NCBI RefSeq assembly: GCF_049969415.1
Contig: NZ_JBMFOX010000003.1
Span: 1-64,000, forward strand
Length of the DNA stretch: 64,000 nucleotides
Source of the DNA: Candidatus Hadarchaeum sp.
Lineage (GTDB): Archaea; Hadarchaeota; Hadarchaeia; Hadarchaeales; Hadarchaeaceae
Reading direction: 5' to 3'
Positions 26,535 to 56,558 of the stretch are shown here, piece by piece (within the stretch, counting starts at the first letter, position 1; the number at the start of each line of letters is the position of its first letter). The notes under the pieces were generated by a model. That model saw only the letters and a program-made list of their open reading frames with translations. It searched no databases and was not told the origin of the DNA. Made by a program: the position numbers and the translations under genes.

Positions 26535-26646
26535 TGGCGGGCCCGGTGGGATTCGAACCCACGACCGATCGGTTAGCTCCCAATCGACCGTTAAGAGCCG
26601 ATTGCTTTTGGCCGGAAACCCGACTGCCAGACTGAGCCACGGGCCC
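26535..26646 (-). tRNA. tRNA-Lys(CTT) with two introns (22/23 and 37/38)
   Basis: Removing 26607-26623 and 26574-26591 gives GGGCCCGTGGCTCAGTCTGGCAGAGCAATCGGCTCTTAACCGATCGGTCGTGGGTTCGAATCCCACCGGGCCCGCCA; BHB motif at both introns. Confidence 0.93.
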
Positions 26647-26794
26647 GCTTTCAATATCCGCTTCTAAATTTAAAAAATGGTTGAGCAATTAAAGGTTTCT
26701 CCTTTTTCACGCTAACTATATACAAAAACTATTGAAAATCTTCTTGGTCTTACAATCAAGCTGAACGGATTCAAAATCGTAGCCCGTTTTTTAA

Positions 26795-27997
26795 TTAATC
26801 CCAAGGCTTTAAAATCAGAGCTCTTTTGGGGCAAACTTGTGCGCAGAGTCCGCAGGCATCACATTTTTCTTGGTTGATTTTAGGTAGCCCATCTTCTATC
26901 GTGATGGCCGCAGAACCACCGTCCATACAGGCGATTTGACACAGCCCGCACTTGGTACATCGAGAGGCGTTTAACACCGGTGTTGTCCAATAAGAGTAAT
27001 CCAGATTTTCTTGGCTCTTGATTTTGGGCAAGACGTAACCCACCAATTCCTTTACCGAACCAAACCCCTTGCTGTAGAGATAGGTCGAAACGCCGTCTTT
27101 GAGGTTACTTATAATTCTATATCCTCCGATCATTACGGCGGTGCAGAGTTGGACAGTTGATGCTCCTACCATGAAAAATTCAACCGCGTCTTCCCATTTA
27201 GATATTCCACCGATTCCAGAGATGGGTAACTTAGTTGCTTTTGCTATCTGCGCCACGCAGCGGAGGGAAATGGGTTTGATTGCCGGGCCGGAGATTCCTC
27301 CTAATGCGGATATCCCTTTTACGGAGGGCAAGGGTTCCATTCTTTCGAGGTCTATTCCTATAAGACCCTTGATGGTGTTTATGGCGGAGATGGCGTCGGC
27401 TCCTCCATCTTCGGCCGCCTTTGCCGTTAAGGTTATGTCCGTCACGTTAGGGGTGAGTTTTACCATTATTGGTACGGTTGCGACCTCTTTGGCCAAACTC
27501 GTGGCTTCCCGCGTTAAATTTGGATCTTGCCCCAAGGTTGCGCCTACGGTCCATACTTCATCAGTCAACGGGCAGGATAAATTAAGTTCAATCATATCGG
27601 CTCCGGCCTCCTGCAGGTCTTTAATCATCCGTTGCCAGCACTCCGGTTCCGCGCCGCCCATTAGATTTGGTATCAAGATTTTCTCCGGATATTTTTTCTT
27701 GATTTCCGTGATTTTAGGCAGCCATTCCTTTAAGGGGTAAATCACCGATTCTATATTTTCAATCGCGATTACCTTTCCACCGTAATGTAGGCTGGCTATT
27801 CTGGGATGGGGATCTGGCCGCGGTTTTGAACCCAAAACCTTTGTGACTACACCGGCCCATCCGGCTTCAAAGGCTCTCTCTATCTTGTTGACATTTGCTG
27901 TTGGTGGCCCTGAGGAGAGGAGAAACGGGTTTTCAAATCTGAGCCCGCAGAACTCCATCGACAGATCAACTTTTTTACTATCAGTCGGATTCAACAA
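26795..27997 (-). CDS. preA: Dihydropyrimidine dehydrogenase subunit PreA
   Basis: ENPFLLSSGPPT, ELNLSCP, KLTPNVTDI, two C-terminal 4Fe-4S motifs. Confidence 0.9.
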   Translation of the reverse strand: MLNPTDSKKVDLSMEFCGLRFENPFLLSSGPPTANVNKIERAFEAGWAGVVTKVLGSKPRPDPHPRIASLHYGGKVIAIENIESVIYPLKEWLPKITEIKKKYPEKILIPNLMGGAEPECWQRMIKDLQEAGADMIELNLSCPLTDEVWTVGATLGQDPNLTREATSLAKEVATVPIMVKLTPNVTDITLTAKAAEDGGADAISAINTIKGLIGIDLERMEPLPSVKGISALGGISGPAIKPISLRCVAQIAKATKLPISGIGGISKWEDAVEFFMVGASTVQLCTAVMIGGYRIISNLKDGVSTYLYSKGFGSVKELVGYVLPKIKSQENLDYSYWTTPVLNASRCTKCGLCQIACMDGGSAAITIEDGLPKINQEKCDACGLCAQVCPKRALILKPWD

Positions 27998-28006
27998 TTT
28001 TACCCC

Positions 28007-28705
28007 CTATGTTATTCTCGAATAAATATCTGGGACTTTTCTTGTCCTCAGTAGATTCTCAATCTCCTTTCCGCTTCGGATCTTTGAGGCATCGAACCTA
28101 TCGAGGTGCGTGAATTCATCTACCGGCCGCCTGAAACGCGGTGAGACGCGCTTCGCAGGGAAACCGAGCTGGAGGACTTCAATTATCTTGATGCATGGTA
28201 AGACACCTAAGAGTCGGCTGAGCCGCTTCCTGGTCAAGTGAAAATTTACGGTTCCCCAGCTGAGCCCTAGCCCGAGGGCCCTTGCTGCCAAGATCATGTT
28301 CTGAATGGCCGCCCCCATGCTGACATCTAAGATTTCTTCTCTGTAGCTGGTCTTTGGATAAGCCCTTGTGAATCGTTTGTCGGCGCAGACCACGATCAAA
28401 ACGGGAGGTTCAGTGAACCTCCTTCGTAAAACCTCACTGCTGTAGAAGGGAAATTTCCTGTCCAATTTTTTGGCCCTTTCGTAAGTCTCGGCGAAAATTT
28501 GGGCTATTTTCTCCTTTACTTCTGAATCCTTCACCACGATGAAGTCCCATGGCTGTGTATTGGCACCTGATGGGGCCCACCTAGCGGCCTCAAGTATTTT
28601 TTCTATAAGTTTGTCAGGAACAGATTTGGGCTTAAAGTGTCGGACGGTGCCCTGCCCGCTCATGAGCTTGAGCAGTGTTTCGAACTCAGATTTTCCAGCT
28701 GACAC
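28007..28705 (-). CDS. Nitroreductase family flavoprotein
   Basis: AARWAPSGANTQPWDFIVV, AAIQNMILAARALGLG. Confidence 0.9.
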   Translation of the reverse strand: MSAGKSEFETLLKLMSGQGTVRHFKPKSVPDKLIEKILEAARWAPSGANTQPWDFIVVKDSEVKEKIAQIFAETYERAKKLDRKFPFYSSEVLRRRFTEPPVLIVVCADKRFTRAYPKTSYREEILDVSMGAAIQNMILAARALGLGLSWGTVNFHLTRKRLSRLLGVLPCIKIIEVLQLGFPAKRVSPRFRRPVDEFTHLDRFDASKIRSGKEIENLLRTRKVPDIYSRIT

Positions 28706-29943
28706 CTTTGTCCCCCCTTTCTATAATCCCGTCGAATATACTTACCCCATCCGGGTTTGCTCACGATTTCACCGTCCTCCATCACGATTTTTCCACGCAC
28801 CAAGGTTAACCACGGCACGCCCACAATCTCCCAACCAGCAAAGGGTGTGTAACCAGCTTTAGTATGCAAATTCTCTATCTTTATTCTGGTCCTTTTCCTT
28901 AAATCAATGATTGTTAAATCGGCATCCGCCCCTACTCTTATTGACCCCTTCCGCGGGTAAAGGCCTAATCTCCGAGCCGGGTTCTCGGAAGTGACTTTCA
29001 CAAAGGTTTCCATTGAAATTAAATTTTTTCTTACACCGTAGGTCAGCAAGAGTGGTATTCTTGTTTCGACCCCGGCCACACCCGACCCCGCTTTCCAGAT
29101 ATCTTTCCATCCCGCTTCAACTTCGGAGAGCGGCATTGGCCAGTGATCACTCGAGACCATATCTATTCCTCCGTTTTTCAATCCCTTCCAAAGGGCCACT
29201 CTGTTTTCCTCGCTTCTTATGGGAGGATTGCATTTCAAATATGGGCCGAGTTTCTTCATGTCTTCTTTCCGGAAAAGAAGGTGATGGGGAAGGGCCTCGG
29301 TGCTTACATCCTGCCCGTGGGCCCTTGCACGCACCACCAGATCAAGGCCGAGCTTCGTGCTCAAGTGGAAAATATGGAGGCGAACGCCCGCCTCACGTGC
29401 AAAAAGTAATGCCTTTGAGATCGCCTCTGCCTCTGCTATCTCTGGCCTAGCTTCACAGTGTGCGAGGGGATCCTTTCTTCTCTTAAGTTTTTTCATAAAG
29501 TGGGAGACGATTTCCCAGTTTTCCGCATGAACCCCGGCGATGCAGCCCGTTTTTCCGATGATTTTAAAAGCATCGAGCAGGGTGCCGTCTTCAACCCTCT
29601 CGAGTTCAGGTATGGATTCAGCCATGTAAATTTCACCGAATGCCATCACGCCTTCAGCAGCGAGCTTCGGCAGCTGGTCCAAGTTTTTTGACGTGACCGC
29701 ACCGTTAATTCCGAAGTCCACGATCGCTTTCCCTTCCGCAGCCTTGATAATCTCCCTTAGATTTTTTGGGCTGGTTGATGGTGGGTTGGTGTTGCCATGG
29801 TCGACCACCAAAGTGGTGCCACCCGCGGCCGCGGATTCTGTTCCCGTTTTCCAGTCCTCCCTGTAAGTGTAACCCGGATCTTGAAAGTGCACATGAAAAT
29901 CTATCCCGCCAGGAAGGACAATTTTTCCATTGCAATTTATCAC
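28660..29943 (-). CDS. Cyclic amidohydrolase (dihydroorotase/allantoinase/dihydropyrimidinase), N-terminally truncated
   Basis: LPGGIDFHVH, CNPPIR, SSDH, GADADL; in-frame TAA just upstream of ADRVINCNGK. Confidence 0.8.
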   Translation of the reverse strand: MINCNGKIVLPGGIDFHVHFQDPGYTYREDWKTGTESAAAGGTTLVVDHGNTNPPSTSPKNLREIIKAAEGKAIVDFGINGAVTSKNLDQLPKLAAEGVMAFGEIYMAESIPELERVEDGTLLDAFKIIGKTGCIAGVHAENWEIVSHFMKKLKRRKDPLAHCEARPEIAEAEAISKALLFAREAGVRLHIFHLSTKLGLDLVVRARAHGQDVSTEALPHHLLFRKEDMKKLGPYLKCNPPIRSEENRVALWKGLKNGGIDMVSSDHWPMPLSEVEAGWKDIWKAGSGVAGVETRIPLLLTYGVRKNLISMETFVKVTSENPARRLGLYPRKGSIRVGADADLTIIDLRKRTRIKIENLHTKAGYTPFAGWEIVGVPWLTLVRGKIVMEDGEIVSKPGWGKYIRRDYRKGGQRCQLENLSSKHCSSS

Positions 29944-29999
29944 CCTGTCGGCGGGCGGCCGAATTTATTTCTCACAGGGAAACCTCAACAGAGCTATCG

Positions 30000-30903
30000 G
30001 GTACAATTCCGTTCCGACGTCCAGAAATCAGGTGCTCGATTTCATCATTTGAAGCCCGGATTTCTCCACCAACACGCCAACCGCAAATTTCTTCATCCAG
30101 AACGGGGTGCCGGCCTCAAACGGAAAGAATCTCTTCGTTACCTCTGACTTTGATCGAAAGCTCTACGTCTGGAAAAGCCTTCCCGACCAAAGCGGCGCCT
30201 TTCCGGACATAGTGTATTCTCTGCAGGATGGGCCTTCACCGCGCTGTGGGAGAACACCCTCGCGCTCGCGGGGCAGAAAACTGTATATTTGGAGGAAACT
30301 CCCGCTGGAGGGGGACCTGCCGGACACGATCATCCAGGGTAGGATGGGGAGCATCGCCTTTCAAGATCTGAAGGGAGTAGCTTTGGACGACCGCTATTTC
30401 TACCTGGCGGACTATGGCGCGGAAAAGGTTTACGTATGGGAGGGGTTGCCGGACGAGAACCTGAATCCCTCACCCAAGTTCACTCTGAATGAAGACCCTC
30501 GGCGACTTTATTCTGAAGGCGAGTACCTCTCAGTCGACACAATCTACGACCATTCCGTCAAGATTTACCGGGTGGCAGAGATTTCAAACAACGCTGCTCC
30601 CGTTGCCTCTGTCGGCGGTCCAGGGCGGATGAACGGGCCCTAGGGCGCAGCAGTGAGACAGGGACATCTGTTCCTTGCGGATACGGGCTTCCACCGTGTT
30701 CTGGTCTGGGAGGACGTTGAGGAGGCGATATCAGGAAAATGGCCGCCGGATGTCATCTTGGGGAAGGGAGGCATCGTGATCGTCAGCCCAGAATCGGTCG
30801 TGACAGCCTCTTCAATCCGGCCGGAATTTGCTTTGACGGTGATTATCTCTGGGTCGGGGAGTTCAAGTTCTCAAACAGGATAGTGAGGTTCAGCCCTTTG
30901 TAG
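30000..30903 (+). pseudogene. Degraded NHL-repeat beta-propeller gene (boundaries approximate)
   Basis: Repeats such as LFVTSDFDRKLYVW, YLADYGAEKVYVW and LFLADTGFHRVLVW; in-frame TAG at 30641-30643 plus apparent frameshifts. Confidence 0.65.
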
Positions 30904-30979
30904 ATCAAGTTGCTCCGGATTCAGCCGTTTATCAAAAATGAAAAAAGGCAGCCACCCTAAGAGAGTTCTGTGGTGGAAG

Positions 30980-31771
30980 ATGTTGACTTTTATCGGGCTC
31001 GGGCTTGGGGCCGATGGGATTTCGCTGCAGGGGCTCAGGGCGGCCCAGGAGGCCGACGTCGTTTATGCTGAGCTGTACACCAGCCTGCTGCCCGGCCTGG
31101 TCCTAGCCCAGCTGGAGAAAAGGATCGGAAAGCGGGTCCGTGTGGTCAGCCGCAGAGATGTAGAGGAGGACCCCGGAGAAATTCTGGATCATGCCCGGTG
31201 GAAAAAGGTAGCTTTCTTGGTCCCCGGAGACCCGATGATCGCGACCACGCACGTCGACCTGCGCCTCCGCGCCGCCAAGGCCGGAATCGGGACCAAGATC
31301 GTGCACGCGGCCTCGATAGCCTCCGCGGCCGCCGGGTTGCTCGGCCTGCAGAGCTACAAGTTCGGGCCTTCGGCAACGGTTCCCTTTCCCGACAATCCTT
31401 CAACCCGACCCTACGAGGTCCTGGCAGAAAACCTGAAGCACGGCTGGCACACGATGCTGTTCCTTGATCTCCGGGACAAGGAGAGGGCCATGACCGCCCC
31501 GGAGGCGATCCGGTTGCTGTTAGGGCTGGAGGAGCGGCTAAGGGGAGGCTTTTTCACCCCCGATCTCCTCTTGGCCGTGGTGGCCCGGGCGGGGGCCGAC
31601 GATTGTTTGGTCCGTGCCGATCAGGTGGAGAGGCTGCAACGCGAGGATTTCGGCCCGCCGCCCCACCTGCTGGTGGCTCCCGGCCGGCTGCATTTTGTTG
31701 AGGCCGAGGCGTTGCAGGTGTTTGCGGGAGCGCCGAAGGAGGTGCTGGTATGGCATATGACACGGCGATAA
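30980..31771 (+). CDS. dph5: Diphthine synthase
   Basis: MLTFIGLGL, AELYTS, GDPMIATTH, GLQSYKFG, HTMLFLD. Confidence 0.95.
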   Translation: MLTFIGLGLGADGISLQGLRAAQEADVVYAELYTSLLPGLVLAQLEKRIGKRVRVVSRRDVEEDPGEILDHARWKKVAFLVPGDPMIATTHVDLRLRAAKAGIGTKIVHAASIASAAAGLLGLQSYKFGPSATVPFPDNPSTRPYEVLAENLKHGWHTMLFLDLRDKERAMTAPEAIRLLLGLEERLRGGFFTPDLLLAVVARAGADDCLVRADQVERLQREDFGPPPHLLVAPGRLHFVEAEALQVFAGAPKEVLVWHMTRR

Positions 31772-32442
31772 CTCCCGAGGAGATGAGGGCCATCGAGGCT
31801 CGTGCTGAACGACTGGGGGTCACCCGGCTGCAGCTGATGGAAAACGCGGGCAAGGGGGTGGCCGATTTCATCGCCCGGATGGATCCAGCGGGGATGAAGG
31901 TGGTGGTCGTGGCGGGCACGGGGAACAACGGCGGCGATGGCTTCGTCGTCGCCAGGCACATGGCCGCCTACGAGTCGTTGGTCAAGGTCTTCCTCCTGGG
32001 CCGGGATGAGGAGGTTAAGACCGCCGAGGCCGCGCACAACCTGAGGATACTGAGACAGATGAGGGGGAGCGTGGAGCTGGTTACCCTTGCCGGCGCCGAT
32101 TTCATGGAAAGGCTCGGGAAGGCGCTCGCCGAGGCCGACGTCATCGTCGACGCCATCTTCGGCACCGGGATCAAGGGACAGCTCCGGGAGCCCCACGCCT
32201 CGGTGATTGACATGATTAACCGCAGCCGGGCCTACCGGCTCGCGGTCGATGTTCCCTCAGGGCTGGACCCTCTCACCGGTGAGGTCTGCGGCCGGGCGGT
32301 GCGGGCCAACGCCACCCTCACCTTCCACCGGCCGAAGAAGGGGCTGCTGCTCCGCGGGGACCTCGTCGGGGAGCTGCTGGTGGTGAACATTGGGATACCT
32401 CCCGAGGCCGATGTGGGTGGTGGGGATGAAGCTGGAAGATGA
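31750..32442 (+). CDS. nnrE: NAD(P)H-hydrate epimerase (YjeF N-terminal domain)
   Basis: LMENAG, GTGNNGGDG, DAIFGTG, VDVPSG. Confidence 0.92.
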   Translation: MAYDTAITPEEMRAIEARAERLGVTRLQLMENAGKGVADFIARMDPAGMKVVVVAGTGNNGGDGFVVARHMAAYESLVKVFLLGRDEEVKTAEAAHNLRILRQMRGSVELVTLAGADFMERLGKALAEADVIVDAIFGTGIKGQLREPHASVIDMINRSRAYRLAVDVPSGLDPLTGEVCGRAVRANATLTFHRPKKGLLLRGDLVGELLVVNIGIPPEADVGGGDEAGR

Positions 32443-32671
32443 GCTCCGGGCGGAGATCGAGAAGTGGACGCGGCGGCTGGATGAGTCCCTCGCCGGCGTT
32501 CAGCCCTCGGGGGAGCATGGCGCTAGGATGCTGGAGAACATCCGGGCCTACCGCGCTGACTCGGGACATTTCTATCAACGTGGGGACCTGATCCGGAGCT
32601 TCGAATGCCTGGTCTGGGCTTGGGCGATTCTGGAGGTCGGGAAGGAGCTGGGACACCTAACGGGGCCGTAA
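32426..32671 (+). CDS. DUF357 family protein
   Basis: NIRAYRADSGHFYQRGDLIRSFECLVWAWAILE; usually found near dph5. Confidence 0.82.
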   Translation: MKLEDELRAEIEKWTRRLDESLAGVQPSGEHGARMLENIRAYRADSGHFYQRGDLIRSFECLVWAWAILEVGKELGHLTGP

Positions 32672-32737
32672 CTCTGGAAATCCTGGCCGCGGCCGGCGAT
32701 ATCTTAAAAGCCAAGAAATTGATTTTGGTCCAAAGAG

Positions 32738-33517
32738 GTGTGCCTAATGCTGGAGCTGATCCTGTTTTCTTCCGGTCTGCTGATCGCCACCCTGTTCTCC
32801 ATGATCGGGCTGGCGGGCGGCTCCTTCATCGTCCCCATGATGGTTCTCGCCTTTGGCCTGCCCACGCAGCAGGCGGTCGGTGTCAGCCTCTTTGCCGTGA
32901 TGTTCACCACCATCTCCGCGACGCTGGCCTACGCGGTCCAACGAAAGATCCATTTCAAGGTCGGGCTGCTGCTCGACACCTTGGATGTTCCCGGCGCCTT
33001 CCTCGGGGCCTATCTCACCACGCTGGTCGCCTCGAACTGGCTGGCCGGGATGTTCGGTGGGCTGCTGATCTTCCTCGCCGCCCGGATGTTTCAGAGGAGG
33101 AATTCGGTTAGGGAGATTGAAACCACGGAATCACTGCGGCTGAGCCGGCGCGTGGTCGCCGCCACCGTTCTGGGCAGCCTCGCCAGCGGAATCGTCTCGG
33201 GAATGTTCGGGGTCGGCGGCGGCGTCATCGATGAGCTGGTCATGATCCTGATGCTGGGCATGAGCATCCGGCTTTCCGCGGGCACGGCGATGTTCGGCAT
33301 GGCCATCACCACGGTGGCCGCGCTTGTTCCCCACTGGCTGCTGGGCAACGTCCTGCTGGAGTATGCGGTGCCGCTGACGATCGGTTGCGTCATCGGCGGT
33401 CAGATCGGGCCCTACCTCTCCAAGCGGACTTCAGCGGCCATACTGAGGAGGATCCTGGCGGCGGTCTTCGTCGTCATCGGGGTCAGGATGCTGCTGGTGT
33501 CGTTTCTGGGCGGTTGA
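32738..33517 (+). CDS. TauE/SafE family exporter
   Basis: GLAGGSFIVP and GMFGVGGG repeats; about 8 transmembrane segments. Confidence 0.9.
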   Translation: MCLMLELILFSSGLLIATLFSMIGLAGGSFIVPMMVLAFGLPTQQAVGVSLFAVMFTTISATLAYAVQRKIHFKVGLLLDTLDVPGAFLGAYLTTLVASNWLAGMFGGLLIFLAARMFQRRNSVREIETTESLRLSRRVVAATVLGSLASGIVSGMFGVGGGVIDELVMILMLGMSIRLSAGTAMFGMAITTVAALVPHWLLGNVLLEYAVPLTIGCVIGGQIGPYLSKRTSAAILRRILAAVFVVIGVRMLLVSFLGG

Positions 33518-33571
33518 ACCTAGTTTTCGGCGTGAACATTTTTAATCTGAAAAACGAGTTTATTCGGTTGC

Positions 33572-34348: not shown

Positions 34349-34415
34349 AAAGGGTTGGTTCGGGTCAGATGGTGAAAGCTTATTTTTACAGCGACAGAAT
34401 GTTGGGCGGGAGAAG

Positions 34416-34823: not shown

Positions 34824-34824
34824 G

Positions 34825-35253
34825 ATGTTCGACAAAAGGGGGATAATTGATCACATAAGGGAACTCGAGCAGGCGATGGAGGACTGGCGGAGGTACCGGA
34901 GCATCCCGCTCGAGGAGTTGCGGCGGGATAGGGACAAGCGGAACATGGTCCTGCACGCCCTGCTGGTCGGCATCCAGGCAACGATCGACATAGCGAACCA
35001 CCTGATAGCCGAGCGTAGCCTGAAAAGGCCATCGACCTACCGGGAGAGCTTTCAGATACTCTCGGAGACGGGCTTGATCCCATCCGGGCTCTCCGATGGG
35101 CTGTCGGAACTGGCCGGTTTCAGAAATGTGCTGGTCCACCTCTACTGGGGGCTCGATATCGAAAAGGTTTACGGGGTATTGGTGTCCGGGCTGAAGGTCG
35201 TGGAGGAGTTTGGAAAACTTGTGAAAAAAATGATATCCTCAGGGGGTCCTTAG
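34825..35253 (+). CDS. DUF86/HEPN RNase toxin (HepT type)
   Basis: PSTYRESF and FRNVLVHLY (Rx4H motif). Confidence 0.9.
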   Translation: MFDKRGIIDHIRELEQAMEDWRRYRSIPLEELRRDRDKRNMVLHALLVGIQATIDIANHLIAERSLKRPSTYRESFQILSETGLIPSGLSDGLSELAGFRNVLVHLYWGLDIEKVYGVLVSGLKVVEEFGKLVKKMISSGGP

Positions 35254-35277
35254 AGGTGTTGGCCTTTACTTGCTGGG

Positions 35278-35630
35278 TTGAGGGCCAGAGGGCGGACGCT
35301 GAAAACGCGCAACTACCCTATCGTTCCGGACAGAAAGTCGATGATCGGGCTGGACCTCAAGGGGATTTACGACGAGATGGGCAGGCGCACCTTCGGTAGA
35401 TGGATGTCGTTCAAGGGGATGAATATCCACATGGTCTCAGCTGAGGCGGCGTTCCACACATCGCTGAAGTGATTGCAGTTAAGATGAATATCCACATGGT
35501 CTCAGCTGAGGGCACCATCGCCAGCAAGGTGGTGTTCGGCAGCGAGCAGGACCTAAAGGACGCCGAGGTGAAAGATTGTAGGGGGCATCACCAGATTGGA
35601 ACCTTCCCCCTTTTCATACGCGCTTTTTAG
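35278..35630 (+). pseudogene. Fragment resembling a DUF6036/AbiEii-like nucleotidyltransferase C-terminus, interrupted by the repeat-spacer unit
   Basis: Deleting one 65-nt period restores LDLKGIYDEMGRRTFGRWMSFKGMNIHMVSAEGTIASKVVFGSEQDLKDAE; family call is from motif recall. Confidence 0.5.
35418..35511. CRISPR. Minimal CRISPR-like unit: two identical 29-nt repeats and a 36-nt spacer
   Basis: GATGAATATCCACATGGTCTCAGCTGAGG at 35418-35446 and 35483-35511; internal palindrome CTCAGCTGAG; about 1.1 kb from cas6. Confidence 0.6.
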
Positions 35631-36347
35631 GGGTCCGCTGAAAAGTTTTGAGGACTAGCTGAATCAAGTCGTTGTTCTTGGAAAAAGGGCGGAGATGCCG
35701 GCTCCGTCCTCGGGAGGGAAGCCAGAGAAGGCAGCGAAAGCGACGTTTTGGTGGAGATCGAAAGCAATATGAGTTTGCTCGATTTCGTGGTGGCTCAAGC
35801 CGGAGATAGAAGTTTGGGAGAGAAAAATCGATTTGGTTGAATATGGCATGATTAAGCCCCTTCATAGAGTGAGGATCAAAGAGCAAGCGGCAACCTGCGA
35901 AGAGGGTTGTGAAGGTATACTCCGCAATATCTTAGAAAACATCTTAAAAAATAGAAGAATGCATCAAGGCGGTTTCCAAAATAGGGGACTCGTTTATACT
36001 TTGGTTTTAAATTGGAGAGAACTTTGAAAATAGTTAAAGATTACATTCCGGATTTGGAAGGTAAAATGAAGATGTAAGAAGTTCTCCCAAAAGGAGTCCC
36101 GTAGATACGGCTTTTACGGGAGAAAAGGAAGGCGCTCGGATAAATCCAAGGTGAGTTGGTGCAACTTTCTAATTACAATGACAAACAATGCCTCTGGAGA
36201 GCGGCCCTGTGTCAGCGGACTAATAGTCCATCTCAATTTTTACAAATTCGAAAAAATGGTAACAACCACCCCTCCGGTCAGCTGAGAGCGAGATGACGTT
36301 AAGGAGGAAAAACAGGGCGATTTTAAGATTCCTTGGCGGGGCGGCTG

Positions 36348-37709
36348 TCAGCGCTTGCTGAGGCTCTTTAGAACACCAACGATTTTCCCTGCCTCTTCCA
36401 CCAGTCTGTCTGCGGTTCTCCTCTCCATCGGCGTGGAGATGCAGAACATCCCCCGCGGCGAGATGAAGATGCCCTCGTTGAGCAGGGAGAAGAAGAAGAC
36501 CCGCGCCGCGATCTCGTCAGCGGCCATCGCGCTCCGATAATCGACGACCTCCCCCCTGGTGAAGTGGACATGGCGCAGTGAACCGGCCCCCGTCACCCGT
36601 GCAGCGACATCGGCCTCGGCAAAAATCTTCTTCAGCTCCTGGGCCAAGTATTCCCCCATCCGGTTGATCCTGTCGATGGCCGTGGCGTTCAGTAGCTTCA
36701 GCGTCGCCATGCCCGCCACCATCGCCAGCGCGTTCCCGTTGAAGGTCCCGGCGTGGTGGATGAACTCCCGCCGCTCGGGCGAGAAGAGCTCCATGACTTC
36801 CTCGCGGCCGCCGAAGGCCCCGGCGGGAAGGTCGCCCCCGATTATCTTTCCGAAGGTGGTGACGTCAGAGGTCACGCCGAAGAATTCCTGCGCCCCGCCC
36901 ACGGCCAGCCGCGCCGTCATCACCTCGTCGAAGATCAGCAGGACATCGTTTGCCTCGGTGATCTCCCGCAGGAATTGCAGGTAGCCCGGCCTCGGCGGTA
37001 TCTGCCCAGCGATGCCCAGCATCGGCTCGACGATGACGGCCGCCAGCTCCCTCCGGTTTTGTCTGATGATCCTCTCCGCGGCTTCAGCGTTGTTGAACGG
37101 GGCCACGAGGACCTCCCGGGCGACGCCCTTCGGTATTCCGGGACTGTCGGGCAGGCTCAGCGGGCTCTCGGCCTCTCCGGCAAGCTCCGGGCGCGGTCGG
37201 GCGCTGATCTCGACCTCCGGATAGCTGCCGTGATAGCCCCCTTCCATCTTCAGGATCTTGTCCCTGCCCGTGTAGGCTCGGGCGGCCCGGATGGCCATCA
37301 TGTTGGCCTCGGTGCCCGAGTTGCAGAACCTGATCCTTTCCACAGACCTGAACCTCCGGCAGATGATTTCGGCGAGGCGGTGCTGGGATTCGATGGCGGC
37401 GGCGCAGGTCCAGCCCCTCTCCAGCTGCTCCTTGATCGCCGCGACGATCCGGGGGTGGGCGTGGCCGTGAACTGAGGAGGTATAGTTGTTGACGAAATCG
37501 AGGTACCGGTTGCCGTCGACATCGTAGATCCAGCAGCCGCGGCCCCGCGCCATGACAAAGGGATAGGGACTGAAGTAGACCACGCTGCGCGTGTTCCCCC
37601 CGGGCAGAAATTTCCTCGCCCGTGCATGGATTCTCCTAGAGGCGGGCGTCCTGCGCCGGTACTCCTGCAGGCAGGCTTTCAGCGGGTCAACCCCAGGCAT
37701 AAACTCCAC
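36348..37709 (-). CDS. Class III aminotransferase (glutamate-1-semialdehyde aminomutase-like)
   Basis: FCNSGTEA, GGYHG, IFDEVMT, TFGKIIGG, GTFNGN. Confidence 0.88.
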   Translation of the reverse strand: MEFMPGVDPLKACLQEYRRRTPASRRIHARARKFLPGGNTRSVVYFSPYPFVMARGRGCWIYDVDGNRYLDFVNNYTSSVHGHAHPRIVAAIKEQLERGWTCAAAIESQHRLAEIICRRFRSVERIRFCNSGTEANMMAIRAARAYTGRDKILKMEGGYHGSYPEVEISARPRPELAGEAESPLSLPDSPGIPKGVAREVLVAPFNNAEAAERIIRQNRRELAAVIVEPMLGIAGQIPPRPGYLQFLREITEANDVLLIFDEVMTARLAVGGAQEFFGVTSDVTTFGKIIGGDLPAGAFGGREEVMELFSPERREFIHHAGTFNGNALAMVAGMATLKLLNATAIDRINRMGEYLAQELKKIFAEADVAARVTGAGSLRHVHFTRGEVVDYRSAMAADEIAARVFFFSLLNEGIFISPRGMFCISTPMERRTADRLVEEAGKIVGVLKSLSKR

Positions 37710-44523: not shown

Positions 44524-44532
44524 GCGGATTAT

Positions 44533-45150: not shown

Positions 45151-45287
45151 AGCCCGGTGGGGTAGACCGACTGGGGTCGGGCCCAATGGTCAATCCTGCG
45201 GGCCTTTGGAGCCTGCGACGGCGGAGGGCAATAACCCGCCGAATTCGAACGTCGACGGGTCGACCGAATTTCCGCCCCGGGCTACCA
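45151..45287 (+). tRNA. tRNA-Gln(TTG) with three introns (15/16, 53/54, 59/60)
   Basis: Removing 45166-45186, 45225-45243 and 45250-45270 gives AGCCCGGTGGGGTAGTGGTCAATCCTGCGGGCCTTTGGAGCCTGCGACGGCGGTTCGAATCCGCCCCGGGCTACCA; A1-U72 pair as in archaeal tRNA-Gln. Confidence 0.92.
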
Positions 45288-46542: not shown

Positions 46543-46544
46543 CT

Positions 46545-47102: not shown

Positions 47103-47235
47103 AGCCCCGTGGGGTAGACCCGCCGCTGGCGGGGCCCATCGGTCAATCCTGGCGGGCACCAGCTGGCCGCAATCTGGACCCGCTGACCCCGGTTCGAAAT
47201 CGACAGCGTCGACGGGAATCCGGGCGGGGCTACCA
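47103..47235 (+). tRNA. tRNA-Gln(CTG) with three introns (15/16, 32/33, 59/60)
   Basis: Removing 47118-47139, 47158-47172 and 47199-47218 gives AGCCCCGTGGGGTAGCGGTCAATCCTGGCGGGCTCTGGACCCGCTGACCCCGGTTCGAATCCGGGCGGGGCTACCA. Confidence 0.92.
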
Positions 47236-49538: not shown

Positions 49539-49725
49539 ATCAACTTGGGTTTAAGTGCTCTGTGAGCGTTAAGGATGAGGGCAGGCCTCGACCCCTGCCG
49601 CATTTTTGCAGTGGTTTGGCAAGTTTGAGCATGTGGAATTCATCCCGTGAGGTTCAATGCCTGAGACAGCCGCGATGGGTAGGTTATTTAACGAAAGAAA
49701 GCGTAGAAGGAGCGGACGATTGGCC

Positions 49726-50961
49726 ATGACGAAGATTTACATCATCGACGTCACCAACCGGGACGGGGTGCAGACCTCGAGGATCTGTCTTTCCAAGCTC
49801 GAGAAGACGATGATAAATCTCTACCTGAGCAACATGGGCATCTTTCAATCGGAGTTCGGATTCCCCACGACCAACCACGAGGTCAATTACCTCAACGCTA
49901 ACCTGAAGCTGGCGAGGATGGGTATCTTCGGTGATCTGCGTTTGGGCGGCTGGATTCGGGCCACGGACAAGGATGTGAAGCAGGCGTTCCGAAATGTTCC
50001 CGGCCTGGAGCACGTCAACCTCTCCATTTCGACATCGGACCAGATGATCCTGCACAAGTTCAAGGGGAAAATGAACCATGCGGCGGTAATCCAGGAGATG
50101 ACCGAGGCCGTGGAAACTGCACGCAACCACGGAGCCAAGACCGTCGGCGTCAATGCGGAAGACGCCTCCCGGACGCGGCTGGAGTATCTGATTGATTTCG
50201 GCCTGGCGGCGAAGGAGGCGGGAGCAGACCGACTGCGTTACTGCGACACACTGGGGTATGACAGCCCCTTCACCGTTTACGAACGGGTGAAACAGCTGGC
50301 CCAGGCGATAAAGATGCCCATCGAGCTTCACTGCCATAATGACCTGGGGATGGCGGTGGCGACCTCAGTTTGCGGAGCCATGGCCGCTAACGACGCCGGT
50401 TATGACGCTTACATCAACACCTGCGTCAACGGCATGGGGGAACGCGCTGGCAACGCGGACCTAGTCTCCGTGATTCTGGCCCTGAAGTACAGCAGCGGTG
50501 TTCAGGGCAAGTACCGGCTCGATGAGAAGGTCGATTTGAAGATGGCGTGGAAGCTGTGCAAATACGCTTCCTATGCTTTCCGGGTCCCGATCCCAATCAA
50601 TCAGCCTGGGGTGGGGGCCAACGCCTTCGCCCACGAGTCGGGGATTCACGCCGATGGAGCGCTGAAGGACCGGAGAAATTACGAGCTCTATGATTTCGAG
50701 GAGCTGGGCCGTGGTGAGCCCGAGGTCATCGAGACCGGTCGGGAGATCACCGTGGGGGAGTACTCCGGGATCAAGGGGTTCAGGAACGTGGCCGAAAAGC
50801 TGGAGATCGAGTTCAAGAACGAGGAGGAGGCTAGGAAGATACTGGAACTCGTGCGCTACGCCAACGTCCTGAACCAGAAGCCGCTGGTCGAGGACGAGTT
50901 GCGGTTCATCGTCCAATATCCCGAAATTTGCCGCGAAATAATGGCGATTTCCCCCCCGTGA
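49726..50961 (+). CDS. DRE-TIM acyltransferase (homocitrate synthase / Re-citrate synthase-like)
   Basis: DVTNRDGVQ, AEDASR, HCHNDLG, GMGERAGN, HESGIH. Confidence 0.85.
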   Translation: MTKIYIIDVTNRDGVQTSRICLSKLEKTMINLYLSNMGIFQSEFGFPTTNHEVNYLNANLKLARMGIFGDLRLGGWIRATDKDVKQAFRNVPGLEHVNLSISTSDQMILHKFKGKMNHAAVIQEMTEAVETARNHGAKTVGVNAEDASRTRLEYLIDFGLAAKEAGADRLRYCDTLGYDSPFTVYERVKQLAQAIKMPIELHCHNDLGMAVATSVCGAMAANDAGYDAYINTCVNGMGERAGNADLVSVILALKYSSGVQGKYRLDEKVDLKMAWKLCKYASYAFRVPIPINQPGVGANAFAHESGIHADGALKDRRNYELYDFEELGRGEPEVIETGREITVGEYSGIKGFRNVAEKLEIEFKNEEEARKILELVRYANVLNQKPLVEDELRFIVQYPEICREIMAISPP

Positions 50962-51094
50962 CTGACTGCGGGATTGCTGAGGTGTCAGTCCTTTTGTGTT
51001 TATAAAAAAGAAGACTTTTGAAGTAGCTATGGTTTTTTTGAAGGTTAAAAATTCAAATTACATCCGGACCATAATTTCTTAACCGATGATAAGG

Positions 51095-51169
51095 GGCCAG
51101 GGCCGGGATTTGAACCCGGGACGCAGGCTCCACAGGCCCGAATGTTAACCAAGCTACACCACCCTGGCC
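51095..51169 (-). tRNA. tRNA-His(GTG), intron-less, G-1 encoded
   Basis: G-GCCAGGGTGGTGTAGCTTGGTTAACATTCGGGCCTGTGGAGCCTGCGTCCCGGGTTCAAATCCCGGCCCTGGCC. Confidence 0.95.
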
Positions 51170-51377
51170 ACGGATAAACTTCTCCCTTTTCTTATTTAGG
51201 CTTGAAGCCGTGAAATTTTGGGCATTCAATTTTATATAACAACCGATTTCGGCTGGGGCATATTCATGAAAAGCCAGACGTTGAGCAAACCCCAAACTGG
51301 TGCTCCCACCCGGCTAGCAGCGAAAGGTATTTTAGCGCGCCTCGTGAAGCAGAAACGGAAACTTGGAGAGACAGCGC

Positions 51378-53621
51378 ATGAGCGTGAAGTTCTCCGTTGT
51401 GGGAAAGTCCGTCCCCAAGCTCGACGCGGTTAAGCTCGCCACCGGAAAGGCGGAGTTTTTGGATGACATCAAGCTGCCCGGCGCTCTTTCGGTAAAGCTG
51501 TTTGGCAGCACGCGCGCCCATGCCCGGATAAAGAGGATTGACGTGAGCCGGGCGGAGCGGCTCCCCGGGGTTAGGGGAATCATCACTTACAAGGACGCGC
51601 CGCGGGTGCCGTTCAACCCGGGCGTATATTACCTCCTACCCAAGGACAAATACCTCTTCGATGAGAAGGTGCGCTACGTCGGGGAGCCGGTGGCAGCCGT
51701 GGCGGCGGTGGACGAAGACACCGCCGAGGAGGCGCTCTCACTGATCGAGGTTGAATACGAGGAACTGCCGGCGGTCTTCGACCCGGTAGCCGCCATGGAC
51801 CCCAAGGCACCGCGGATTCACCCGCAAGGAAATGTAGCCGCCCATATCGCGCGGGAGTGGGGGGATGTGGAGAAGGGCTTCCGCGAGGCCGACCATGTCT
51901 TTGAGGGCAGGTACACCACGGGGCGGCAGGTGCACGCCACGATTGAACCCCACGCCTGCGCCGCCTCTTACGAGTCAGGCAAGCTGACGATTTGGACGAC
52001 GAGCCAGATCCCCTTTCACGTCCGTTCCGTGCTCTCCGAGGTCTTCGGCCTTCCCCAGCACCGAATTAGAGTGATCACTTCCTACGTCGGGGGAGGTTTC
52101 GGCGGCAAGGACGAGGTCATCCTCGAGCCCATCTGCGCCCTGATGGCTATCAAGCTTGGCGAAACCGTCAAGCTGAGACTGACCCGGGAGGAGGTCTTTC
52201 AGGCCACTACCACGCGGCATCCTTCCATTGTCTGGTTGAAGACTGGGGTGAAGAAGGACGGCACTCTGGTGGCGCGGCAGGTGAGGGCCATCCTTAACAC
52301 CGGGGCCTACGCCTCCCACGGCCCGTCGGTTGCCGGCGCCATGAGCACGCGGGAACTGGGCCTGTACAGATCACCCAACGTCAGTTTCGAGGCCGATGTC
52401 GTCTACACCAACAGCCCCACCGCCGGGGCCTTCCGCGGCTACGGGAACCCGCAGCAGAGCTTCGCCGTGGAGTCGCAGCTGGATGAGATCGCCGAGGCGC
52501 TGGGAATCGACCGCGTGGAGCTGAGACTGAAGAACACCATCAGCGCCGGGGAGATAAACCCCGGCACCGGCCTGAGGATCGAGAGCTGCGGGCTGCAGGA
52601 ATGCATCCGGAGGGCCACCGAGCGAATCTGCTGGCGGCAGAAGTCGCGGGACATCGAGGCGGGGAAGCTGAGGAACCGGGGCCTGGGCATCGCCTGCCTG
52701 ATGCACAATAGTGGCGCCTTCCCCTACATCAAGGAGTCCTCCTCGGCAATCGTCCAGATCAACGAGGACGGGACGGTACAGGTGATGACGGGTGCGGCCG
52801 AGATCGGGCAGGGGATTACGACGACCATCGCCCAGCTGGTGGCCGAGGAACTGGGCGTGGATCTGGAGAAAGTGGCGGTCACCCGCCCCGACACCGACTT
52901 TGTGCCCGTGGACCGGGGGACCTACGCCAGCGGTGAGCTCTACATCAGCGGCCAGGCGGCGAGGCTGGCCGCCGCGGACGCCAAGCAACAGCTGTTGAGG
53001 AAAGCGGCCGAGGTGATGAAGACCAAGCCGGAGGAACTGGAGGTGGTCCAGGGCATCGTCCGGCTGAAGAAGGACCCCAAGGTCAGGAAAACGATTCAGG
53101 AAATAATTGATGAGGTGGCGATCGTCGGCAAGGCCACCTACATGCCGCCCAGCAACGCCCCAATTTTCGGTGCCATGTGTCTGGAGCTCGAGGTCGATCC
53201 CGAGACCGGGGCGATCAAAGTCCTCGATATTGTCTATGCTGCTGATGTCGGCCGGGCGATAAATCCGTTGATCGTCGAGGGACAGATCGAAGGCGGCGCG
53301 GTGATGGGTATGGGCTTTGCCCTAACCGAGGACCTGGTCCTGGACAGCGGCGGCCGCGTGATCAACCGGAACTTCACCGACTACAAGCTCTTGCATGCCT
53401 CGGACCTGCCGCGGATTGAGCCGGTCATCGTGGAATCCCTTGAGCCGACGGGACCCTTTGCCGCTAAGGGGGTGGGCGAGCCGGCCCTGGTTCCGGTAGC
53501 CCCGGCGATTGCCAACGCGATTTATCAGGCGGCCGGTGTCAGGATAAGAGACCTGCCGATCACCCATGACAAAGTGCTGAAGGCCTTGAAGGAGTTAAGT
53601 TCTCGAAAAGCGTCGGGGTAA
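51378..53621 (+). CDS. Xanthine dehydrogenase family molybdopterin-binding subunit
   Basis: VGGGFGGK, AFRGYG, EIGQG, EGQIEGG, KGVGE. Confidence 0.92.
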   Translation: MSVKFSVVGKSVPKLDAVKLATGKAEFLDDIKLPGALSVKLFGSTRAHARIKRIDVSRAERLPGVRGIITYKDAPRVPFNPGVYYLLPKDKYLFDEKVRYVGEPVAAVAAVDEDTAEEALSLIEVEYEELPAVFDPVAAMDPKAPRIHPQGNVAAHIAREWGDVEKGFREADHVFEGRYTTGRQVHATIEPHACAASYESGKLTIWTTSQIPFHVRSVLSEVFGLPQHRIRVITSYVGGGFGGKDEVILEPICALMAIKLGETVKLRLTREEVFQATTTRHPSIVWLKTGVKKDGTLVARQVRAILNTGAYASHGPSVAGAMSTRELGLYRSPNVSFEADVVYTNSPTAGAFRGYGNPQQSFAVESQLDEIAEALGIDRVELRLKNTISAGEINPGTGLRIESCGLQECIRRATERICWRQKSRDIEAGKLRNRGLGIACLMHNSGAFPYIKESSSAIVQINEDGTVQVMTGAAEIGQGITTTIAQLVAEELGVDLEKVAVTRPDTDFVPVDRGTYASGELYISGQAARLAAADAKQQLLRKAAEVMKTKPEELEVVQGIVRLKKDPKVRKTIQEIIDEVAIVGKATYMPPSNAPIFGAMCLELEVDPETGAIKVLDIVYAADVGRAINPLIVEGQIEGGAVMGMGFALTEDLVLDSGGRVINRNFTDYKLLHASDLPRIEPVIVESLEPTGPFAAKGVGEPALVPVAPAIANAIYQAAGVRIRDLPITHDKVLKALKELSSRKASG

Positions 53622-53746
53622 ATTAATTCCCGGTCTTTGCCAAGAAGGTCAAGCCACCTGAAATAGTTCCGGGTGGTTGGGAAATTTTTGGATCAGCGGT
53701 GCGGATGTTTTTAATACCTTGGAGCCTGAGGCCTGAATGGATTGCC

Positions 53747-53920
53747 ATGCCGAAGCCACCGATTAACAAGGAATTGTTGGATATACTTGCCTGCCCCATC
53801 TGTAAGTCCGGGGTAAGACTGAGGAAGGGCAAGCTCGTCTGCATCCGGTGCGGTCGGGAGTATCCCCTCGTGGACGGAATTCCCATCATGCTGCCGGAAG
53901 AGGCCCGCCTGAAAAATTGA
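53747..53920 (+). CDS. Trm112 family protein
   Basis: LLDILACPICK...CIRCGREYPLVDGIPIML. Confidence 0.9.
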   Translation: MPKPPINKELLDILACPICKSGVRLRKGKLVCIRCGREYPLVDGIPIMLPEEARLKN

Positions 53921-54014
53921 CCCCCTTCCATTTCACCACCGTTATCATCCCGAAATTTTTGCTTTGGTTCGATATCCTTTTAAGCAGGGTTGACCATCCC
54001 TCTTAAGCGATTGG

Positions 54015-54911
54015 ATGCTGAACCAGGCCGAGAGGGTAACGGTAGCGTCAATCATCGTGACGACCCTTTTGGGTGCAGTTGAGGTGGCGGTATTCCTGAG
54101 GTTTGGAATCGTCACCTTCTTCGCTGCCGGGCTGGATGCCCTCTTTGACACCGCCACCTCGATTGGGGTCCTGATCGGTCTCAAGGTCTCGGGACGTCCG
54201 GCGGATCGGGGTCACCTCTACGGGCACATGCAGGCCGAGACGCTGGTTTCACTGTTTCTCGCGGGTGCTTTAATCTTCTCCGCGGTGAGGATAGATCAGC
54301 TGGCGATCGAGAAGATCTTCGCCCAAACGCCGGCCGAAGTCAGCCCGGAGCTTTTCCTTCTGGCGACGTTTACCATAGTTTTGTTCAGCGCCCTAGCAAG
54401 ATACAAGATCAAAATCGGGAGATTGTCTAGAAAAAACTCGGTGGTGGCGGACGGATATCATACCCTCTCAGATGCTTTTTCCTCGGCGACCGTGCTGGCC
54501 GGGCTGGTGCTGATGAAATGGGGATACATCTGGGCGGATGCGGTCGCGTCCATCATCATCTCCCTCGTGATTCTCCGCTGGGGGCTGGCCATTGGTTATG
54601 ACGCGTTAAATGTGCTGATGGGCGCCAGCCCGGGTACAAAATTCATCTCTCGATTGAAGGACATCTGTATGGATGTCCCTGGAGTAAGCGGATGTCACAA
54701 GTGCCGGGCCCGGCGCGTCGGCTCCCGCATCCACGCGGACATGCACGTGCTGGTCGACCCCAAGCTGAGCGTCGAAGACTCGCACAGGGTTGCAACGAAA
54801 GTGGAGCGCAGCCTGAAGACTAGGATTCCGGAGCTGGCCTCGGTTGTCGTGCACATAGAGCCGGTGAGGAAAAACAGCCGTGGGAAAATGCCTCCGAGGC
54901 GCCCGGGCTGA
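54015..54911 (+). CDS. Cation diffusion facilitator transporter
   Basis: PADRGHLYGH, ADGYHTLSD, VVHIEP. Confidence 0.92.
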   Translation: MLNQAERVTVASIIVTTLLGAVEVAVFLRFGIVTFFAAGLDALFDTATSIGVLIGLKVSGRPADRGHLYGHMQAETLVSLFLAGALIFSAVRIDQLAIEKIFAQTPAEVSPELFLLATFTIVLFSALARYKIKIGRLSRKNSVVADGYHTLSDAFSSATVLAGLVLMKWGYIWADAVASIIISLVILRWGLAIGYDALNVLMGASPGTKFISRLKDICMDVPGVSGCHKCRARRVGSRIHADMHVLVDPKLSVEDSHRVATKVERSLKTRIPELASVVVHIEPVRKNSRGKMPPRRPG

Positions 54912-55440
54912 GTTCTTGTTCTTCGCAGCCAGAGCACTAGTTTCAGCTTCTGGACGAGAACCTGAGGAAACCCCTCATCACTTGCGTCATGACCGTGATG
55001 GGGAAAAACGATAATCGGGACCTGAGTTACAGGATCAATGAACAGAGCGAGGTCTCATCGGATAGCGGGGGCCCGAAGCGGTTAATCTCAAAGAGCGGCG
55101 AATGAAGAGGATGGGCTGGAGTGTAAGGTGGTTGCAAGCTCATCAAGATGGGGCCTGATATTCTGGAAAAAGTTATTGTCGGGAGCGTCGTGAATGAGGA
55201 AATTTCAGCGCTAACTTCGGGGCATCACGTTGGTGCGGAGGGATAGAGCGCTGCTATCATTCAAATCTATCAAGCTAAATTTTAAGAACCGGGCAGGATC
55301 TGGGCAGGATTTTTGTGGTCTTTTGGGGGTTGGGTGAAGTCATGGCGCCTACGGTGCCTTTTTTACTAGGAGGGACCGCACAAATCTTGCTCGATGCAGG
55401 AATACCGATGCTTTTATATTAAAAGTAAGACTAGGCTTAC

Positions 55441-55716
55441 TTGGTGGGATACGTGACGCTGGCCGTGACCAAGACCTCCATCAAGGGGCAATTGGTAATC
55501 CCGAAGGAGATAAGGCGGGAACTCGGGATAAAAGAGGGCCAGTTGATGCTGGTTTACGCCGCCGGCGACAGGATCATCTTGAAAAAGGTGGAAGCTCCAG
55601 AGCCGGGTCTGTTTTCAATGCTGGCCGAGCCCATTAGGGCAAAAGCCAGAGAACGGAGAGTTACCCGAAAGGATGTCGAGCGCGCGATCAGAGAGATTCG
55701 TGGGCATGCGGAATGA
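55441..55716 (+). CDS. AbrB/MazE/SpoVT antitoxin
   Basis: KGQLVIPKEIRRELGIKEG. Confidence 0.9.
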   Translation: MVGYVTLAVTKTSIKGQLVIPKEIRRELGIKEGQLMLVYAAGDRIILKKVEAPEPGLFSMLAEPIRAKARERRVTRKDVERAIREIRGHAE

Positions 55717-56126
55717 AGCCTGTGATAGTGGTAGCCGACACGAACGTCCTCGTTTCCTCATTGCTTTGGGAAGGAAACGAATCAAAAATCGTGGAGTTAG
55801 CGGAAATAGGAAAGATAAAGCTACTCACATCAGCTGCACTTCTGGACGAGCTAAAAAAAGTTTTGATGTACGAGAGGTTTGGCTTGGACGAAAAGACGGT
55901 TGATGATAGTGTCAAATACATTTTGACTATCTCCGACATCATCTCGCCAAAGCGCAGTGTCAGGGTAATCCATGAAGATCCGGCCGATAATGAGGTGCTG
56001 GGGTGCGCCTTGGAGGGAAAGGCAAGGTACATCGTTTCTGGTGACAAGCATCTGCCGCGATTGAAGGAATTTGGGAGAATCAAGATAGTACGCGCCAAGG
56101 AACTTCTAAACATCCTCAAGATTTAA
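55713..56126 (+). CDS. PIN-domain toxin
   Basis: VADTNVLVS, EDPADN, IVSGDKHL; overlaps the antitoxin stop. Confidence 0.9.
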   Translation: MKPVIVVADTNVLVSSLLWEGNESKIVELAEIGKIKLLTSAALLDELKKVLMYERFGLDEKTVDDSVKYILTISDIISPKRSVRVIHEDPADNEVLGCALEGKARYIVSGDKHLPRLKEFGRIKIVRAKELLNILKI

Positions 56127-56388
56127 CCGTGCCAAATCCCCATGCATCGCGTGGGTTGCACTGCGCTGCCCAACATCCTCGCTTTGCTGGGGCAGAGTAT
56201 GGTTTGATTTCTATCTCATTTTGTCGGTTTAATTTTTCGCGATGGCGATGGTAGGGCAACAACCGGCGTTTTGAGGGATATAAACCTAGATGGAAATTCA
56301 AACCGTGCTCAAAAATCGATCCTTGTCAATAGGCCTCCTTTGACAGAAATCCGCCGGTATCTTCCTCATTCGGTTCAGTGAAAAAAGG

Positions 56389-56558
56389 TGCGGGGGGAGG
56401 GATTTGAACCCTCAACATTCGGATATCAGACCTAGGAGTCTTCAGTTTTGCCCCTTGAGAGCTGTCCCCCAAGGTCCGACACTATTGAGCCAGGTTTTAC
56501 CTGGTCTCCCATTTCAATCCGGTGGCGGCTTTCCACCAGATGGTTGAGTTACCCCCGC
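56389..56558 (-). tRNA. tRNA-Phe(GAA) with four introns (17/17a, 22/23, 30/31, 37/38)
   Basis: Removing 56512-56541, 56484-56505, 56447-56475 and 56425-56439 gives the 74-nt GCGGGGGTAACTCAACCTGGGAGAGTGTCGGACTGAAGATCCGAATGTTGAGGGTTCAAATCCCTCCCCCCGCA with all four stems paired. Confidence 0.9.

Follow-up and report, generated by a model that had tools for sequence, protein, structure and literature searches.

A stretch of 64,000 nucleotides from a Candidatus Hadarchaeum genome (assembly GCF_049969415.1, contig NZ_JBMFOX010000003.1, positions 1 to 64,000; hereafter the window) carries five transfer RNA (tRNA) genes between positions 26535 and 56558, four of which are interrupted by a total of 12 predicted introns at eight distinct positions. 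Ten of these introns lie away from the canonical site at 37/38 and ten have A as their first base; all of these counts had been put forward in a first-pass annotation made from the letters alone and all were reproduced here. With a probability which we put at roughly 0.85, these are genuine Hadarchaeota tRNA genes interrupted by short bulge-helix-bulge (BHB) introns, served by a single alpha4-type EndA together with RtcB. Similar interruptions recur throughout the genome and in other genera and families of the Hadarchaeales, and it may be in the degree of fragmentation, rather than in its mere presence, that these genes depart from what has been described.

The source organism is, judged by sequence, an uncultured archaeon of the Hadarchaeota. 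The assembly is a metagenome-assembled genome (MAG) of 138 contigs, approximately 95% complete and with approximately 2% contamination, in which the genes of the window sit on a 73-kb contig bearing Hadarchaeota marker genes. A protein comparison of the GatE encoded in the window gave 82-86% identity to Candidatus Hadarchaeum records, followed by records from Hadesarchaea and Hadarchaeota MAGs, those of the Bathyarchaeia being much more distant. The presence of a type-2 (methanogen-type) SerRS, of SepRS and of GatD/GatE in the window was confirmed. It was from the first two of these that the first-pass annotation had argued for a Euryarchaeota-related lineage, and this placement holds, both from the GatE matches and from the NCBI taxonomy, in which the Hadarchaeota stand under the kingdom Methanobacteriati.

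Introns of the window and their geometry

The five genes and their predicted introns are listed in Table 1. When the 12 intron stretches were removed by coordinate, all four products were accepted by ARAGORN with the expected identities, and the spliced cloverleaves had zero mismatches in our own cloverleaf solver. The Phe gene, of which Rfam matched the T arm alone (14.1 bits), can be read in the sequence from a perfect 7-bp acceptor pair, its halves 169 nt from each other, and an intact T arm. For the third intron of the Gln(CUG) gene, three other slides of the boundaries lead to an identical product but form poor helices, and for the 37/38 intron of the Lys gene a better helix, as read by eye, requires a 3' bulge of 4 nt. 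Both tRNA-Gln genes (45151-45287 and 47103-47235, with their encoded CCA ends) have A1 paired to U72.

Table 1. tRNA genes of the window and their predicted introns. H, central helix (pairs formed of four); h', inner helix; h, outer helix; gene coordinates exclude the encoded CCA.
Feature	Coordinates	Strand	Length (nt)	Intron position	H	h' (bp)	h (bp)	Remarks
tRNA-Lys(CUU) gene	26538..26646	-	109					CCA encoded to 26535; 2 introns; Rfam 44.9 bits with two insertions; own solver; spliced ARAGORN call Lys ctt
Lys intron 1	26607..26623	-	17	22/23	4/4	4	1	first base T; HBh'
Lys intron 2	26574..26591	-	18	37/38	2/4			canonical position; H scored in register
tRNA-Gln(UUG) gene	45151..45284	+	134					CCA encoded to 45287; 3 introns; BHB pairs, greedy splicing and ARAGORN; spliced ARAGORN call Gln ttg
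Gln(UUG) intron 1	45166..45186	+	21	15/16	4/4	6	0	
Gln(UUG) intron 2	45225..45243	+	19	53/54	4/4	3	3	strict
Gln(UUG) intron 3	45250..45270	+	21	59/60	4/4	6	0	first base C
tRNA-Gln(CUG) gene	47103..47232	+	130					CCA encoded to 47235; 3 introns; BHB pairs; spliced ARAGORN call Gln ctg
Gln(CUG) intron 1	47118..47139	+	22	15/16	4/4	6	0	
Gln(CUG) intron 2	47158..47172	+	15	32/33	4/4	3	1	
Gln(CUG) intron 3	47199..47218	+	20	59/60	4/4	5	5	strict
tRNA-His(GUG) gene	51095..51168	-						intron-free; ARAGORN; Rfam 55.9 bits
tRNA-Phe(GAA) gene	56389..56558	-	170					4 introns; own solver; greedy splicing and ARAGORN; spliced ARAGORN call Phe gaa
Phe intron 1	56512..56541	-	30	17/17a (D loop)	4/4	8	1	
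Phe intron 2	56484..56505	-	22	22/23	4/4	6	0	
Phe intron 3	56447..56475	-	29	30/31	4/4	9	3	strict hBHBh'
Phe intron 4	56425..56439	-	15	37/38	3/4	2		

The boundaries of the introns were chosen so that a cloverleaf would be restored, and the BHB motif was scored afterwards at the identical boundaries. Under this scheme a central helix of four pairs in register was found for ten of the 12 introns, as was an inner helix of at least 3 bp (10/12). All ten non-canonical introns combine a 4/4 central helix lying between two 3-nt bulges with an inner helix of 3-9 bp. Throughout this genome that combination has a background rate of roughly 1.1e-3 for each position and length, a value taken from 190,659 candidates on both strands of 1.466 Mb at 59 lengths, and the fit at boundaries fixed by the cloverleaf is more than chance. 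An outer helix of at least 2 bp, scored as contiguous pairing of the exon bases that adjoin the bulges and giving the strict hBHBh' form, is present in three of the ten.

Intron load and conservation in the Hadarchaeales

The first-pass annotation had supposed that the introns seen in the window belonged to a proliferation extending through the lineage, a claim which fares well at both the level of the genome and that of the order. Across the genome, 45 Rfam tRNA matches lie at or above the cut-off; 17 of these are elongated, about 28 are of ordinary length, and further genes are invisible to Rfam, so that the load is not a local one. Our solver found solutions for 17 of 20 elongated regions, totalling 22 introns: seven regions have one intron at 37/38, five have one elsewhere (mostly at 22/23 or 30/31) and five have two. 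The regions C23:7755-7847, C87:423-520 and C5:45143-45239 were left unsolved by the solver, the first of them also at a second attempt. Taken together, at least 39 introns are predicted in 22 tRNA genes of the genome, 24 of them at non-canonical positions.

The gene with the most predicted introns lies outside the window; it is a gene of approximately 205 nt for an initiator-type tRNA-Met(CAT) on the plus strand (G000:C24:10949-11153; L104:250-454). Overlooked by both Rfam and ARAGORN, it came to light when strong BHB candidates were removed greedily and the remaining sequence was given to ARAGORN. Five introns are predicted in it, one at 4/5, within the acceptor stem, and four more at 30/31, 37/38, 45/46 and 59/60; in the solver the resulting cloverleaf has no mismatch. 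At the other end of the range, adjacent intron-free genes for tRNA-Ile(GAT) and tRNA-Ala(TGC) were seen in several copies on the small contigs C74, C136, C69 and C50. Such adjacency is typical of the spacers of bacterial rRNA operons; these four contigs may therefore be contaminants which inflate the count of intron-free tRNA genes.

Conservation was followed in 31 genomes of the order Hadarchaeales, the present genome included. The Phe gene has full-length matches of 95-96% identity in four genomes of the same genus and of 76% and 70% in two other genera. Eight of 12 Phe loci were aligned; three near-identical loci from the same genus were left out, as was one more from family f5. The introns at 30/31 and 37/38 are present in all eight aligned sequences; four sequences carry the full set of four introns, and in the other four the D arm is intact and these two introns are the only ones. 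By taxon, the four-intron form belongs to three genera, and the two-intron form to two others and to a second family (loci L087 and L093 as against L088-L091). It follows from this split that the two introns of the D arm were gained, or lost, within the family.

The other interrupted genes have a comparably broad distribution. Gln(CUG) has matches in 17 of the 31 genomes at E<=1e-9. Nine relatives, which represent six genera, match over nearly the whole gene, and two other families match over a part of it that takes in the D-loop intron. The five-intron initiator gene likewise has matches in 17 of the 31 genomes, of full length in three genomes of the same genus, the others beginning after the first intron or spanning part of the gene. 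That Phe, Gln and initiator-Met genes are also interrupted elsewhere in the order bears out the lineage-wide character of the proliferation, and the interruption of tRNA genes is both old and still changing within the lineage. The difference between genera with two and with four Phe introns constitutes a natural series in which the gain of introns can be studied.

Splicing enzymes and competing explanations

A search of the genome for endA and rtcB, which the first-pass annotation had proposed as a check, located one of each. EndA is represented by one PF01974 and one PF02778 match, both in a single frame of 179 residues which adjoins trpS on contig C9 (L081:1246-1785). No further match to either family, as would be expected of a second endonuclease subunit gene, was found in this approximately 95% complete genome. 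The protein is 92% identical to that of Ca. Hadarchaeum yellowstonense, and its relatives in the Hadarchaeota are all of approximately 177-182 residues. Residues 15-179 align with the alpha4 EndA of Methanocaldococcus jannaschii (1a79) at an E value of 9e-37 with just two gaps of one residue each, the C-terminal halves being of equal length. Tyr115, His125 and Lys156, which we take to be the catalytic residues, are invariant in the 16 relatives aligned. Because there is a single two-domain gene of about 180 residues which aligns with 1a79 and conserves the Tyr/His/Lys triad, the enzyme is assigned to the alpha4 type, which it is by all the sequence criteria applied; that it would assemble as a homotetramer is suggested only by its likeness to 1a79. 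The expectation of an unusual EndA was therefore correct in one part and not in another: the enzyme is neither an (alpha-beta)2 nor an epsilon2 form despite the many non-canonical introns, but its architecture is not unusual either, its 179 residues aligning from one end to the other with the alpha4 enzyme of M. jannaschii.

One short stretch differs from the M. jannaschii enzyme. Residues 35-37 read Gly-Lys-Pro, G35 and K36 being invariant and P37 nearly so in 16 Hadarchaeota and MSBL1-like relatives. In the alignment Y34-G35-K36 falls opposite Y160-K161-V162 of the ARMAN-2 enzyme and opposite a shorter, lysine-free stretch of M. jannaschii EndA, the region around K36 being two residues longer than in the latter.

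In the mechanism which we propose, each intron of a precursor would pair with the neighbouring exon to give a 4-bp helix between two 3-nt bulges, the alpha4-type EndA of 179 residues would cut after the second base of each bulge, and RtcB would ligate the exons. EndA alone would then have to cut every intron, including the seven of HBh' form. Several observations sit uneasily with this account and should be weighed against it. In seven of the ten non-canonical introns the outer helix amounts to 0-1 bp, which by simple contiguous pairing gives the HBh' form; according to the relevant part of Kaneta et al. (PMC5829648), the cutting of motifs relaxed in this way is known only from loop-bearing (alpha-beta)2 and epsilon2 enzymes. 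Aligned with the M. jannaschii enzyme, however, EndA was not found to contain an inserted loop of the CSL/L1 or ASL/L2 type; nor could the C-terminal L3 loop, which the same paper ascribes in its passage on Hadesarchaea EndA (PMC5829648), be confirmed in this protein. The poorest BHB fits are those of the two introns at the canonical position (26574-26591 and 56425-56439), with central helices of 2/4 and 3/4. Moreover, in the D arm of the Gln genes two bases separate the D stem from a 5-bp anticodon stem, where ARAGORN draws a stem of 6 bp. The BHB introns are themselves predictions from DNA sequence alone, and the genome-wide counts are those of our own scripts, which for some genes allow several solutions.

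One way to accommodate the missing outer helices, which we consider possible although it would need better odds to be preferred, is that an ordinary alpha4 EndA of narrow specificity suffices, the outer helix arising from other base pairs of the precursor or after the removal of introns in a set order. All ten non-canonical introns have the central helix at 4/4, both 3-nt bulges in register and the inner helix, three are strict hBHBh' motifs, and EndA carries no loop that the M. jannaschii enzyme lacks. The 37/38 intron of the Phe gene illustrates how order might matter, as its outer helix is the anticodon stem, which in the gene is split by the 30/31 intron and can therefore form only after that intron has been removed or looped out. 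If an ordinary alpha4 EndA is sufficient, then no broad-specificity system, as had been suggested in the first-pass annotation, is implied. Against this, the exon bases beside the bulges are unpaired in seven introns (outer helix of 0-1 bp), and the published view, in the part of PMC5829648 devoted to the matter, is that HBh' motifs require loop-bearing enzymes. An explanation to which we give rather less credence is that the alpha4 EndA of the Hadarchaeota may have been broadened in specificity without any large insertion, a candidate cause being the invariant Gly-Lys-Pro stretch (K36) of the N-terminal domain. G35 and K36 do not vary among the 16 relatives, and the stretch aligns with Y160/K161 of ARMAN-2, which are named as key loop residues of that enzyme in a section of PMC12397907. 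However, the equivalence of K36 with the ARMAN-2 loop is drawn from the alignment of sequences; the same stretch also occurs in M. kandleri, in the non-catalytic unit of its enzyme, and in the MSBL1-like relatives, and Kaneta et al., in the passage concerned, point instead to the C-terminal L3 loop (PMC5829648).

It could also be argued that the interrupted genes are not functional at all, being decaying pseudogenes, assembly artefacts or contaminant DNA, with working copies elsewhere. The source is, after all, a MAG of 138 contigs with some 2% contamination, and genes for Tyr(GUA), Thr(GGU) and Pro(CGG) were not found in the genome by any method. Yet a second gene for Phe, Gln or Lys(CUU) was not found in the genome by Rfam, ARAGORN or greedy splicing either, so the supposed working copies did not come to light; the interrupted genes stand on a 73-kb contig amongst Hadarchaeota markers, their spliced cloverleaves are free of mismatches in the solver, and the same genes are found interrupted in assemblies made independently for several genera. 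We regard this explanation as very improbable indeed. Genuine tRNA genes with BHB introns served by the single alpha4-type EndA and RtcB thus remain our reading of the data. A bolder extension of it, offered tentatively and with more doubt than conviction, is that the tRNA genes of the Hadarchaeales are the most fragmented intron-bearing ones described with a plain alpha4 EndA (four introns in Phe and five in the initiator, one of these in the acceptor stem), that in place of an inserted loop a small determinant, such as the Gly-Lys-Pro at 36, or a helper may be at work, and that introns are still being gained between genera.

Detection of the genes and comparison with known systems

The standard finders performed poorly on these genes. 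Run on the window with default settings, ARAGORN returned one of the five, His(GUG); with its intron option it returned two, the Lys gene being mislabelled as Arg, and the Rfam tRNA model at the gathering score also returned two (His and Lys). The Phe site, near 56400, was first indicated by a search for T-loop motifs. Scans for acceptor-stem pairs and a separate scan for an intact T arm gave the three minus-strand genes only and neither of the Gln genes, both of which carry T-loop introns. The Gln genes emerged instead from strong BHB candidates listed in the gaps between long reading frames, where plus-strand sites near 45170 and 47120 each hold a pair of BHB candidates flanked by D-loop-like and T-loop-like bases. 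Unfiltered listings of BHB candidates were too noisy to read, and a stricter list confined to the gaps was used in their place. The cloverleaf solver, which allows jumps across introns, gave obvious false positives under loose settings that permitted as many as five jumps, and was applied solely to regions already indicated by another method. Greedy splicing, with ARAGORN run on the products, brought out Phe and Gln(UUG), but Gln(CUG) still escaped it. Because Rfam and ARAGORN miss three of the five genes here and the initiator gene elsewhere, the tRNAs that seem to be missing from Hadarchaeota MAGs, about which the first-pass annotation had also wondered, are in part an artefact of annotation. 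The practical point is that multi-intron genes escape standard finders, and gaps in the tRNA sets of such MAGs should be read accordingly.

Two further gaps, at 35253-36348 and 54911-55688, were considered as tRNA sites and rejected, reading of the sequence having shown no tRNA in either. Two direct copies of approximately 30 nt (35416-35447 and 35484-35512), 68 nt apart, lie in a 1.1-kb gap without a long reading frame and are possibly the remnant of a repeat array. On the minus strand, a short region at about 55205-55270 lies behind an AT-rich box and has a 7-bp terminal stem and motifs resembling a C box and a D box; judged by eye, it is a candidate C/D box small RNA, and it had no Rfam match.

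The first-pass annotation had presented the expansion of introns as possibly an independent one with an unusual EndA. However, Kaneta et al. (2018), in the part of the paper dealing with the group, report an alpha4-type EndA together with a marked rise in disrupted tRNA genes in Hadesarchaea archaeon YNP_N21 (PMC5829648), a different genome from ours which belongs to the same class, Hadarchaeia. Since that study covers the class, the phenomenon was already documented for this clade, an outcome which the first-pass annotation had itself named as grounds for refutation, and heavy disruption of tRNA genes alongside an alpha4 EndA in this group is already known. YNP_N21 appears there as a bar in Figure 7, and the available portion of the text (PMC5829648) has no per-gene list and no mention of genes with four or five introns or of gain between genera. 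What may be new here is the degree of fragmentation, with four and five introns in a gene, the turnover between genera and the failure of standard finders. Nothing further on tRNA introns or the splicing endonuclease of the Hadesarchaea or Hadarchaeota turned up in our literature searches; a term search found no mention of Hadesarchaea in a 2025 structural paper on splicing endonucleases or in a 2019 review, and a search for four-intron BHB tRNA genes turned up only papers on a red alga and on phages. A bench test of the Hadarchaeota alpha4 exception flagged in 2018 was not found in the literature searched. The suggestion that introns might protect tRNA genes from use as integration sites is likewise not a new one, being an older hypothesis of Randau and Soll cited in a passage of PMC4390854. 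The same 2015 review, in the section available, speaks of 'up to three introns' per archaeal tRNA gene (PMC4390854), as against four in Phe and five predicted in the initiator Met here.

Amongst known systems, a close one in enzyme is that of M. jannaschii, the alpha4 EndA of which (1a79) resembles the present one in length class, in the possession of both domains, in its end-to-end alignment and in the Tyr/His/Lys triad. It differs around K36, where it has two residues fewer and no lysine. According to the passage on enzyme types in PMC5829648, alpha4-type EndA as in M. jannaschii serves strict BHB introns, whereas the Hadarchaeota genome carries many of the HBh' form. The multi-intron tRNA genes of the Thermoproteales are served by an (alpha-beta)2 heterotetramer with a Crenarchaea-specific loop, in contrast to the one alpha4-type gene without insertion found here. 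ARMAN-2 has non-canonical introns as here, one of them at 59/60 (Figure 6 legend of PMC5829648), but its epsilon2 EndA is a three-unit fusion with an ASL loop, whilst that of the Hadarchaeota is a single two-domain unit. A very high load, with many non-canonical positions and multiple introns per gene, is also described for the Asgard Atabeyarchaeia and Freyarchaeia in the portion of PMC11291895 concerned with tRNA genes; these belong to a different superphylum, and 92-95% of their genes have introns compared with roughly half here. That account gives 228 introns in three genomes (PMC11291895), and Asgard genomes may hold higher per-gene intron counts than those reported above; Kaneta et al., where they treat the group, place an L1 loop throughout the Asgard EndAs (PMC5829648). 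The prevailing rule drawn from such systems is that relaxed, non-canonical tRNA introns need a loop-bearing (alpha-beta)2 or epsilon2 enzyme, and it is this rule which the Hadarchaeota, with an alpha4 EndA of plain appearance, would break.

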